DNA of 64,000 nucleotides from Thermodesulfobacteriota bacterium (GCA_965226585.1 OZ245366.1:1056001-1120000), one strand, 5' to 3'; positions 59,964-63,064 are shown, counted from the first letter of the stretch. Notes: generated by a model from the letters alone, not told the origin. Numbers and translations are program-made.

Positions 59964-60659
59964 TTACTTCCTTTTTCTCCCTGAAGACGCGGAGCTTTTG
60001 CCTTTCGGTTTTGCCGGAGTTTTGGGCGCGGGTTTGGATTTTTTCGGAGCGGGTTTGGGCTTGGGAGCGGGTTTTGCCGCCTTCTTCACCTGTTTCTTCA
60101 CGGGCGCGGGAGCCGCCTTTTTTGGAGCGGGCTTTTTCTTCGGAGCCGGTTTCGCTGAAGGCTTGGGCTTTGCCGCAGGCTTGGGCTTTGCCACAGGTTT
60201 GGGCTTTGCCGCAGGTTTAGGCTTTGCCGCAGGCTTAGGCTTTGCCGCAGGCTTAGGCTTTGCCGCAGGTTTAGGCTTTGCCGCAGGTTTGGGCTTTGCC
60301 GCAGGCTTAGGTTTCGCGGCGGGTTTTGCCGTCGGTTTTGGCTTCGCTGAAGAGGCGGGTTTGGAAACCGGCTGGGCGGGCGGCTTGGAGGTGAAAATAT
60401 CCACTACCTTGTCGCGAAGTTCAGGGTGAGCAACCGTGAGCTCTATCTCTATCTCCTGCGTTTTCTCGCCAATAACAACGAATATCGGCACTATGCCTAT
60501 GAAAGTGGTTTGCTTTTTATCGCCGTCAACTCTTTCAAAGTCGAGAGCGGACATCAGTTTTTTCGGAAAACTCTGGAGCAAGGTTTCGCCAAGGTCAATG
60601 CTCTGCTGTGGAAGAAGCCCGTCCTGACTGATGCTAATCTTTATTGAAGTAGGTTTCAT
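59964..60659 (-). CDS. Hypothetical protein with histone-H1/AlgP-like K/A/P-rich C-terminus
   Basis: About 90 aa globular N-terminus followed by AAKPKP repeats; ATG 60659 avoids overlap with the divergent AAA gene. Confidence 0.75.
   Translation of the reverse strand: MKPTSIKISISQDGLLPQQSIDLGETLLQSFPKKLMSALDFERVDGDKKQTTFIGIVPIFVVIGEKTQEIEIELTVAHPELRDKVVDIFTSKPPAQPVSKPASSAKPKPTAKPAAKPKPAAKPKPAAKPKPAAKPKPAAKPKPAAKPKPAAKPKPVAKPKPAAKPKPSAKPAPKKKPAPKKAAPAPVKKQVKKAAKPAPKPKPAPKKSKPAPKTPAKPKGKSSASSGRKRK
60160..60321. repeat. Coding tandem repeat, 9 x 18 bp (AAKPKP)
   Basis: ggYttRggctttgccgca units with mostly synonymous variation (one VAKPKP unit). Confidence 0.92.
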
Positions 60660-60806
60660 CTGCGGGTGTAAGGGTTTTATGCTAACAAATATCCGTTCAC
60701 AAATCAAGAACTGAAAAAGCGCGGGCGGCGGACTGAAACCCTCGGAGAGTTTGCGAAAGTGGAATGTTGCCGTATAGTTATCTCCGGCTGGTATTTCTGC
60801 GGGAAG

Positions 60807-61757
60807 ATGAGCGATAAAATTTTTCAGCAAATCCGGAAGGAGCTCGACAGGCACATCATAGGCCACAGCGAGGTCAAGACCGCCCTGCTCCTCGGTCTTC
60901 TGTCAAGAGAACACATATACATAGAGGGAACTCCGGGAACCGCGAAAACGATGCTTTCCGAGATTGTGGCGGCGTGCGCGCAGTTGAAATTTTTCTTCTA
61001 TCAGCTCCACAGAGACACACGCCTTTCGGAACTTGTGGGCGATATGGTTATCTCCAAAGAGTCTGTGGATGAGGAAGAGATAATACGGCAGAAGATAGTG
61101 AAGGGAGGAATTCTCACCTCGGAAATTTGCCTGCTTGACGACATCTCAAGGGCTCCCGGAGAATCTTTGAACGTGCTTCTCCGCATACTTAACGAAAGGA
61201 AATTTTTTGAAGACCCTCTGCCCCTCATGACGGCGATTGCCACAAGCAACCCCACGGCGGACGAATACTACAACGAGCCGCTTGACCCCGCCAACCTCGA
61301 CAGATTTGTGCTTCAAATAAAGTCATTCGGCACGGCATACAAACGCGACTGGGATCTTGCGGGCGACATAATCTCCCTCTACTCGTCAAGAGACGAGGAA
61401 GTGGAAGTCCCCAAACTTCTGGAAAGAGGAGCATTGGACAAACTGCATGAGCAGGTCAAGGCGGCTCCCATACCCAAAGCGGTGCAGAACGGGCTTAAAG
61501 AGTTCATCCGCATACTTGTTGAGGATTTCGGGCTGGACGAAACCAACTCACTTATCTCAGACAGAACCTTCTTTGTGAAGGCGCTTAAAATAATCAGGGC
61601 TTACGCCGTGCTGAACGGAAGAAAATCCTGCACAATGCAAGACCTTGAAGTGCTGAAATACATAACCGTTTTCCGCATTCCGCCGGAAGTTTACGCTCAG
61701 ATTGACGCAATTCTTGAGCAGATAAAATCTAAAAAAAAAACCGTGACGAAGAGCTGA
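60807..61757 (+). CDS. MoxR/RavA-family AAA+ ATPase (zero-frame product)
   Basis: EGTPGTAKT Walker A, CLLDD Walker B variant, LNVLLRILNER, ATSN, LDPANLDRF, ISDR. Confidence 0.88.
   Translation: MSDKIFQQIRKELDRHIIGHSEVKTALLLGLLSREHIYIEGTPGTAKTMLSEIVAACAQLKFFFYQLHRDTRLSELVGDMVISKESVDEEEIIRQKIVKGGILTSEICLLDDISRAPGESLNVLLRILNERKFFEDPLPLMTAIATSNPTADEYYNEPLDPANLDRFVLQIKSFGTAYKRDWDLAGDIISLYSSRDEEVEVPKLLERGALDKLHEQVKAAPIPKAVQNGLKEFIRILVEDFGLDETNSLISDRTFFVKALKIIRAYAVLNGRKSCTMQDLEVLKYITVFRIPPEVYAQIDAILEQIKSKKKTVTKS
61728..61742 (+). other. Candidate -1 frameshift / transcriptional slippage site (TCT AAAAAAAAAA CC)
   Basis: A10 run at 61731-61740; the -1 frame opens right after TAA (61730-61732) and stays open to 63064. 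Confidence 0.65.
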
Positions 61758-61918
61758 ACCAGCCCCCTCCTGAACAGGAAAATCAAGAGCCGGAATCTCT
61801 GTCTGAGTTCGACAAAGACCTCCCCGAAGAAGGCGACAAAGAGGAACTTCCGGATGAAGATTCGGAAAAAGAAGCGGAAGAAGAGCACGACTCTGCGCGG
61901 GAAACTTTCTTTCAGGTT

Positions 61919-63064
61919 ATGAAAGACATGCAGGATGAAAAGATGCAGCCGCCCGAAGGAATGGATATTCCTTCAGACCCCAAAGGACAGCCCGACCAGA
62001 ATGCGGGCGAAGACGAGCAGAAGGAGTTGTCTGAAAAGACGACTTCAAGCAAATCCGTGCGTCCGGGAGACATTGAGGAGAACGCGGCGGCGGCATACAG
62101 AAACCATGAGACGGCGAAAAACATCAAACGGATAATGAAAGTTCTTGAGGGAAGTTTCCAGAGAAGCATGGCGACAAAAACCAGTCACCCCGGCGGAATG
62201 CCGAGGCGGTGGAAAAAGATGAACACCCTTGAACTGGAAGACGCTGACCCTCTGGAGTTTTTCCTGTGGTCTGACACCACCTCGCCGACGCTTCCCCGGG
62301 TTCAGATGAGAGAAAAAGAGTCCACAGGCGGGGAGATAGCGATTTTGCGGGACGTGAGCACCTCAATGATGGGCATTTACAGCGAGTGGGCGTCATCGGT
62401 TGTGCGCGGCGTTATGGAACTTGCCAGAAAAAAGAACATGAGGGTCGGCTACCTTGAGTTCAACCACAAAGCAGACCCTTACCGCAGGCAGAAAGGCAGA
62501 AGAAGTTTCTTCACCAGAGAATACCCCTGGCTTCTGGACATAGCGTCAGAAACGGACTGCTCCGGCAACACGAATTACGAGGAAGCCCTGAAAAACACGG
62601 TTGAGGAGTTCAAGGGGCGCGGACGGAGAAACAAGCACATCCTTTTCTTAACAGACGGCATACCGACTTCGGGAGACATATCTTTCGGCGATGACAATTC
62701 TCATCAGGCGGGGCGTCCGAACAGCGATGAGAAACAGCTGATTGAGTACTTGAATGCGGGGCGGCTTGAGCCGGGGGAAAAACCGCGCCCCTTGCGTGAA
62801 ATAGTAAAAAGAACACAGCGGCTCGGCATCCGCATACACTCAATTTTTATCGGCTCTAAAACGTATCCAAAAATCCTGCAGAGAATTTCAGAGGAGACAA
62901 GCGGCACTCAGTTTGTCGCTTTCAGAAACGATGACAGAATTATGCAGGTTGAGCGCAGGGACAAGTTTATGTCCAAACTTCTGGGAAAAGATATTGACAG
63001 TTTCGACCCGATAAAAGCCGCGTTCACACAGCGCCGCATTCACACCGTAACGGGAAAACTTTAA
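61919..63064 (+). CDS. von Willebrand factor A (vWA, ViaA/ChlD-like) domain protein; reading frame actually open from 61733
   Basis: MIDAS DVSTS, SGNTNY, LTDG; in-frame upstream acidic/Pro-rich segment. Confidence 0.85.
   Translation: MKDMQDEKMQPPEGMDIPSDPKGQPDQNAGEDEQKELSEKTTSSKSVRPGDIEENAAAAYRNHETAKNIKRIMKVLEGSFQRSMATKTSHPGGMPRRWKKMNTLELEDADPLEFFLWSDTTSPTLPRVQMREKESTGGEIAILRDVSTSMMGIYSEWASSVVRGVMELARKKNMRVGYLEFNHKADPYRRQKGRRSFFTREYPWLLDIASETDCSGNTNYEEALKNTVEEFKGRGRRNKHILFLTDGIPTSGDISFGDDNSHQAGRPNSDEKQLIEYLNAGRLEPGEKPRPLREIVKRTQRLGIRIHSIFIGSKTYPKILQRISEETSGTQFVAFRNDDRIMQVERRDKFMSKLLGKDIDSFDPIKAAFTQRRIHTVTGKL

Follow-up and report, generated by a model that had tools for sequence, protein, structure and literature searches.

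The locus at positions 60807–63064 (plus strand) of the window, that is, the whole 64,000-nucleotide (nt) stretch of a Thermodesulfobacteriota bacterium genome analyzed here (GCA_965226585.1, OZ245366.1:1056001-1120000), raises the question of whether an AAA+ ATPase and a vWA protein that annotation would assign to two adjacent open reading frames (ORFs) are actually the products of one gene. The AAA ORF (60807–61757, plus strand like all features below unless noted; 316 amino acids (aa)) ends at a TGA (61755–61757), and the vWA ORF, as annotation would call it, spans 61919–63064 (381 aa from the ATG at 61919). A run of ten A's (A10; 61731–61740) lies at the junction between the AAA domain and the linker. 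The −1 frame is bounded by a TAA at 61730–61732, an arrangement found in many relatives, and from there runs for 443 codons to its first stop at 63062–63064, so that any shift must occur on the A10 run. Read in this frame, the apparent intergenic gap (61739–61918) encodes an acidic, Pro-rich linker followed by a conserved helix, and ATG 61919 sits in the same frame, 60 codons past 61739. Our re-reading of the sequence agrees with the initial annotation on the end of the AAA ORF, the position of A10, the opening of the −1 frame at the run and its continuation to 63064, and the codon count agrees with its description of the gap as 60 codons in frame with the vWA ORF. One extra A in the run would yield a computed product of 308 + 444 = 752 aa, and the ORF at 61919–63064 would really be the remainder of the linker plus the vWA domain of this long product; in natural fusions, the vWA part is in frame with the AAA part. 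We conclude that two products are very probably made from this one locus. In the mechanism that we propose, RNA polymerase would realign on A10, adding or dropping A's; transcripts with one more A would encode the 752-aa AAA-acidic linker-vWA protein, and the remaining transcripts would encode 316-aa AAA subunits with short tails.

Such a scheme depends on the run being real. The assembly is a single contig of the long-read kind, and homopolymers are error-prone; an assembly error had been listed as an alternative in the initial annotation, and a pseudogene is considered here along with it. However, contigs from four sequencing runs of three studies span A10 with no gaps; X1 and X3 represent one sample, possibly the very one from which the window was assembled, and X4 and X5 come from two other studies. 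The X4 and X5 contigs differ from the window by substitutions elsewhere but not at A10, and because the contigs of these two other studies span the run ungapped, we consider it real: the proposed comparison of A10 with A11 comes out as A10. In addition, the −1 break is common to 93 genomes, both halves of the gene are intact and the run is present in all related genes with a readable junction (see below); assembly error or gene decay accordingly receives practically no weight. Long A/T runs are otherwise scarce, with only three runs of ten in the entire source genome (1.48 Mb in one contig, 52% G + C (GC)) and 32 other A/T runs of at least 9 nt in the 501,224 bases of the 115 orthologous loci, versus 115 of 115 junctions with the run.

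In the class Dadabacteria, 117 of the 120 genomes, including ones of 0.8–1.1 Mb, contain a single orthologue of the gene. The junction is readable in 115 of the 117 (G116 and G078 were left out because of contig ends), and in all 115, broken or in frame alike, an uninterrupted run of 9–12 A's occupies the same place. Relative to the AAA frame, the vWA part lies at −1 in 93 of these genes, at +1 in three and at 0 in 18 (one of which, G060, carries further breaks), its frame being unreadable in one; the start of the run uses all three codon phases (0, 1 and 2). Elsewhere in the same genes (G060 and G091 were left out of the codon background), Lys is encoded by AAA 2686 times and by AAG 2186 times (45% AAG), and of 416 Lys-Lys pairs, 153 use AAA for both residues; given that AAG is common at the other Lys codons, a constraint on a Lys-Lys-Lys peptide does not account for the run.

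The −1 frame beyond the run is under coding selection. Over the first 60 codons past the run, the −1 frame is free of stops in all 92 of 92 genes, whereas the two remaining frames contain 195 and 483 (G099, which contains N's, was left out of the stop and start counts), and the ratio of nonsynonymous to synonymous polymorphism (pN/pS) in the linker is 0.09 in genus g8 and 0.13 in genus g13, the two genera for which it was computed. No start codon or Shine-Dalgarno (SD) sequence is conserved in the gap stretch across 20 genera; in the window, the SD duplex energy before ATG 61919 is +0.4, in line with the earlier remark that this ATG lacks a good SD. Because the gap is open, evolves under purifying selection and has no conserved start or SD, it would be a translated part of a longer protein that can be entered only on the run. 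The same observations bear on the possibility that the locus consists of two separate genes, with the vWA gene starting at ATG 61919 or later and the run being a relic of an old fusion. The partners of MoxR ATPases are normally encoded separately (PMC13036017), and several in-frame ATGs are present, but neither the position of the start nor the SD is conserved in the 20 genera, the 60 codons before the ATG are conserved as protein, and a relic run would decay to AAG. We therefore find separate genes highly improbable.

Beyond Dadabacteria, the main copy of the gene carries an uninterrupted A9–A12 run in 23 of 23 matched genomes from three other phyla. In Tectomicrobia, the run is present in all 12 matched genomes of the 17 searched (9 in frame, 2 at −1 and 1 at +1), in loci of up to 63% GC (up to 66% across the three phyla); genomes titled Nitrospinota have it in 2 of 2, both in frame; and the phylum of genome G122 has it in all 9 matched genomes of the 11 searched (7 in frame and 2 at −1). 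Thus, the slippery run persists at the same point in homologues, as the initial annotation had suggested checking, with 115 of 115 carriers in the class and 23 of 23 outside it, and the frame break, in the genes that have one, falls at that point. In the AAA tree, the run carriers form one clade (support 1.0, on a short branch) within which the −1 and in-frame states are interleaved; this is a FastTree phylogeny in which each genus and state is represented by one sequence (94 in all, G060 left out), with a very distant outgroup, so that the root and the deep order are unreliable. One Entotheonella genome (G129, locus L145) contains two tandem copies of the gene, both with A10 and both at −1. 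Three Entotheonella genomes contain paralogues (L234, L235 and L237) that are about 50% identical to the main copy; a TAG in these matches was considered as a possible readthrough signal and rejected, being the normal stop of the in-frame paralogue (L237 was read there in the wrong orientation). In-frame AAA-acidic linker-vWA homologues were also detected in protists (P0243, P0250, P0258 and similar proteins from MMETSP and EukProt), with N-terminal extensions that, by eye, resemble organelle presequences.

A different arrangement is found in Myxococcota and Acidobacteriota. Of 72 loci retrieved with a Myxococcota query, 64 are readable, and each of the 64 consists of an in-frame AAA-vWA fusion gene plus a separate AAA gene, the longest A-run in the linker being 4. 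Among 19 two-gene loci that were examined, the sensor-1 Asn is lost in the fused AAA domain (18 of 18) and kept in the separate AAA protein (19 of 19). Because this form mirrors ChlD/ChlI, the two-gene loci indicate that the machine would use both AAA-only and AAA-vWA subunits. Complex prediction for the two products of one such pair, from Myxococcota, gave a score of 0.43, compared to 0.00 for the best of three controls, with the runs agreeing in at least 84% of contacts and the partner at a predicted local distance difference test (pLDDT) value of at least 71. Of the solved complexes, 51 of 78 reach the mark for this score, as do 2 of 108 mismatches; passes at 0.60 or less, however, come from only 5 of the 78 and from all 4 mismatches that passed. 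The prediction is thus a weak pass that may reflect likeness to solved AAA rings. The view of the studied locus as one gene with two subunits, put forward in the initial annotation, holds up on three counts: the run is real and conserved, the −1 frame of the gap evolves like protein-coding sequence, and loci with an AAA gene of its own beside the fusion have no run.

Taken together, these comparisons allow us to suggest, tentatively and as a possibility that we rate somewhat below even, that an unnamed, ancient AAA+/vWA family with an Asp-Asp (DD) Walker B motif, present in at least six bacterial phyla and in protists, forms rings in which AAA-only subunits are mixed with AAA-vWA ones, one clade doing so by polymerase slippage that is indifferent to the encoded frame and another by duplication with decay of the fused ATPase.

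How the two products would arise is a separate matter, on which polymerase slippage is probably the main route, because the run always has at least 9 A's, starts in any phase and lacks conserved stimulators. Nine A's is the in vivo threshold for slippage by bacterial polymerase and also the length found in Thermus thermophilus dnaX (PMC5009743, PMC6260861), and no shorter run occurs among the 115 class junctions or in the 23 carriers outside the class. An SD-like upstream site is not conserved (best decile in only 3 of 30 genera), nor is a downstream hairpin (z-score (z) below −2 in 4 of 30 genera, mean z −0.51) or an upstream nascent-RNA hairpin (z below −2 in 4 of 30 genera; G060 and G099 were left out of the per-genus folding). 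The 60 nt downstream of the run in the window fold at −7.4 kcal/mol with z = +1.15; hence the two small hairpins that had been pointed out there do fold, but they are neither significant nor conserved. In 16 of 17 in-frame genes, the place matching 61755–61757 holds a stop for the short product, and four different codons, which specify Ile, Leu or Val, create it there (the background for such placement is 74 of 193, site included). This conserved stop is reached by the loss of one A or the gain of two, and not by a −1 ribosomal shift; because the genes in question are related, this is no more than suggestive of polymerase slippage.

The principal competing explanation yields the same two products through the ribosome, which would either slip in tandem by −1 on an A_AAA_AAA or A_AAA_AAG heptamer or slide along consecutive AAA codons, with the long form coming from −1 genes and the short form from in-frame genes, as in Escherichia coli dnaX. 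It would account for the dominance of −1 among broken genes (93 of 96), and each of the three +1 cases is one A shorter than its closest relatives and may be an error. A heptamer would suffice for it, yet no run is shorter than 9 or interrupted; the stimulators are not conserved; and the stop kept by in-frame genes is in a frame that a −1 shift misses. The efficiencies measured with cassettes (63, 40 and 10% for A11, A9 and A7; PMC3711429) do not separate the routes. We consider the ribosome as the main route doubtful, although both routes may operate.

Several observations weigh against our interpretation. Ribosomal shifting fits the junctions too, because every run holds an in-phase X_XXY_YYZ heptamer of the A_AAA_AAN type (A_AAA_AAA in 69, A_AAA_AAG in 45 and an ambiguous one in 1 of the 115), and frameshifted chlD (fs-chlD) is described as a case of ribosomal frameshifting (PMC9227772). 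The relatives compared here are not independent samples, and the two-gene loci are likewise mutually related, mostly of high GC (49–73%) and found by a query from their own group. The conserved stop of the short product is missing in G009. Furthermore, the three Entotheonella genomes with an in-frame paralogue, which lacks the run, also hold an A10 copy, and the fused proteins P0182 and P0241 and several protist proteins, available as protein sequences, have no Lys-Lys-Lys junction; because such run-less in-frame fusions exist, the AAA-only subunit is not always visibly encoded. Finally, the proportion of short to long products would be expected to differ between in-frame and −1 lineages, which weakens the idea of the initial annotation that slippage sets the subunit stoichiometry and suggests that the ratio would be loose.

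Under another alternative, DNA slippage toggles the fusion between cells. Differences of one or two A's from close relatives in G003, G094, G111, G091, G060 and L232, along with A9 in 2 of 29 metagenome copies, are what such phase variation would produce. The other 27 marine metagenome copies have A10, however, and none of the 29 is in the in-frame state, contrary to this earlier suggestion (the search pattern allowed 7–13 A's, 50 of the 79 matches were unrelated sequence, and contigs show the consensus only). Moreover, all but one of the 37 genomes of family f8 have A10 with the −1 state, purifying selection acts on the vWA frame in the −1 lineages, and the product is a cytoplasmic ATPase; we regard phase variation as very unlikely.

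By domain content, the protein is a MoxR-like AAA+ ATPase and neither ChlD nor RavA proper. The AAA part matches the Pfam families bpMoxR (68.6 bits), AAA_5 (65.7), AAA_3 (48.7) and AAA_lid_8 (30.8), all above the cut-off, and the nearest solved structures, by sequence and fold, are CHU_0153 (2r44) and RavA. The match to the RavA equivalog PRK13531 (NCBIfam) reaches only 52.5 bits versus a cut-off of 681 and spans positions 14–284 of 498; therefore, of the earlier RavA/MoxR label, the MoxR half stands and the RavA half does not. Walker A (60927–60950, assigned from the sequence and kept in the family alignment), sensor 1, the arginine finger and sensor 2 are intact. The acidic pair of Walker B (61137–61142) is DD instead of Asp-Glu (DE) family-wide (30 of 30 sequences in alignment A1, and all aligned single-gene and separate-AAA sequences), that is, the canonical glutamate is absent. 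The codon at 60930–60932, within Walker A, encodes Thr here, versus Pro in all other aligned single-gene bacterial orthologues. The vWA domain (62336–62932; Pfam VWA and VWA_2) contains the MIDAS motif DxSxS (62351–62365), with D520, S522, S524, T590 and D618 invariant in alignment A1, as expected of a partner of MoxR-group ATPases. An insertion of about 40 residues relative to other families lies in the vWA region at 62670–62800 and explains the 752 aa here compared to about 705 aa elsewhere; this longer vWA form is present in 5 of 6 genomes of the genus to which the window belongs. In the structural model of the natural fusion P0126, the linker has low pLDDT and a helix spans 352–377; with a mean pLDDT of 62 and a predicted template modeling score (pTM) of 0.43, the quality of this model does not allow a finger or the position of the vWA domain to be assigned.

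A chelatase role was considered and rejected: there is no match to PF01078 or PF17863, cobN is rare (PF02514 above cut-off in 6 of 120 class genomes, all in the genus of the window), and the genome has a separate chlD of its own, which does contain PF01078 and PF17863 and has no significant similarity to the studied gene (BLASTP E value of 0.014). This true chlD is located outside the window, in a cob/cbi cluster (G000:C1:76410-78149, plus strand; locus L220:796-2532). It is in frame, yet it holds the genome's other plus-strand A10 (77302–77311) at its AAA/linker junction, and among the six members of the genus, four have this chlD at −1 and two have it in frame, always with an A-run of 8–10. 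No separate chlI was found in G000, where cobN is present. By these features, the genome's true chlD appears to be a case of the known fs-chlD with the same flipping of the frame.

With respect to function, we propose a hexameric ring made up mostly of short subunits, with one or a few copies of the long form, whose tethered MIDAS domain would grip a client that is remodeled by the ring, as NorQ and NorD do with separate genes. Our best guess is that the client is a core cellular complex, because 117 of 120 class genomes, those of 0.8–1.1 Mb among them, retain the gene as a single copy. Neighboring genes in 116 Dadabacteria loci suggest no client: the recurrent ones are housekeeping genes, mostly on the opposite strand, namely proB, MltG-like, GST-like and thioesterase-like genes, gyrA, guaB and guaA (labels assigned from translations, with only proB confirmed by Pfam). 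The divergent ORF upstream in the window (59964–60866, minus strand), the counterpart of which adjoins the gene in 29 of 116 loci, encodes a domain without a Pfam match and a long Lys/Ala/Pro repeat tail that is histone-like by composition; because its listed start overlaps the start of the AAA ORF, the true start is probably further in. A CoxL-type client in Dadabacteria was rejected, given that PF02738 is found in 0 of 120 class genomes (controls matched in 6 of 14). The two-gene loci (L279–L350), on the other hand, are often directly upstream of coxS-, coxL-, coxG- and MobA-like genes, with a coxS-like neighbor in 17 of 28 and a coxL-like one in 18 of 28, so that the two-gene form could represent a new system for the maturation of molybdenum hydroxylases.

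If the tentative suggestion of a mixed ring across the whole family is correct, the division of chelatases into I and D subunits would exemplify a recurring AAA+/vWA design, reached here independently of ChlD and used twice in this genome, in the studied gene and in its chlD. Even without that wider view, the locus would add a chromosomal, non-mobile and nearly class-wide recoding site to the short list of dnaX, prfB and chlD, and current annotation, by splitting the gene in two, would hide a 700–750-aa protein in about 95 genomes. The lineages with slip sites and those with duplicated genes amount to a natural experiment on the need for adaptor-free and adaptor-bearing AAA+/vWA subunits, and the in-frame and −1 versions could be compared directly to tell polymerase slippage and ribosomal frameshifting on poly-A apart, the question of the route having been left open for the chelatase cassettes (PMC3711429). 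The slip trick itself is known from chelatase genes; we did not find its use in a MoxR-like family in print, neither in the accessible portions of PMC2669436 nor in two supplementary files of PMC3711429, although a cluster of this kind may be recorded in the GeneTack database, in another supplementary file of PMC3711429 or in subscription papers (Antonov 2020, Sharma 2011).

Among known systems that pair a MoxR-group ATPase with a MIDAS-bearing vWA partner are NorQ-NorD, CbbQ-CbbO, RavA-ViaA and CoxD-CoxE. NorD docks one vWA domain with a finger in the pore of the NorQ hexamer (PMC13036017). In these pairs, the vWA partner is the product of a separate gene without an AAA domain, whereas here it would be tethered to an AAA subunit. 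The studied AAA protein also lacks the C-terminal domains of RavA (316 versus 498 aa), and the class genomes differ from the CoxD/CoxE setting in the absence of PF02738, the large subunit of molybdenum hydroxylases. Midasin/Rea1 combines six AAA domains, an acidic linker and a MIDAS domain in one chain. It resembles the long product in that MIDAS is tethered to the AAA ring through an acidic linker (PMC13036017), but its subunit ratio is fixed in one polypeptide, with no recoding.

The closest parallels in the mode of expression are fs-chlD and T. thermophilus dnaX. Like the studied gene, fs-chlD (the "magnesium chelatase" cluster of GeneTack) encodes AAA, an acidic linker and vWA; an A-rich slip site joins the two parts and gives rise to small and medium subunits (PMC3711429, PMC9227772). 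The slip signal of fs-chlD disappears when the small subunit has a gene of its own, just as the 64 two-gene loci have no run longer than 4. The chelatase gene differs in the AAA domain, which in the studied gene is MoxR-like, without PF01078 or PF17863 and with DD in Walker B; in phyletic pattern, cobN being present in 6 and the studied gene in 117 of the 120 class genomes; and in the downstream stimulatory RNA structure, of which the studied gene gives no sign. Some fs-chlD lack the large subunit, so that a CobN/ChlH partner is not a strict criterion (PMC9227772). T. thermophilus dnaX shares a run of at least 9 A's in an AAA+ gene, the production of short and long subunits of a ring-type machine (PMC5009743, PMC3711429) and the occurrence both in frame and as two ORFs, but it belongs to the clamp-loader family, and slippage is experimentally established there and inferred here. 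The gene described here thus appears to work like both fs-chlD and T. thermophilus dnaX while belonging, by its domains, to neither.

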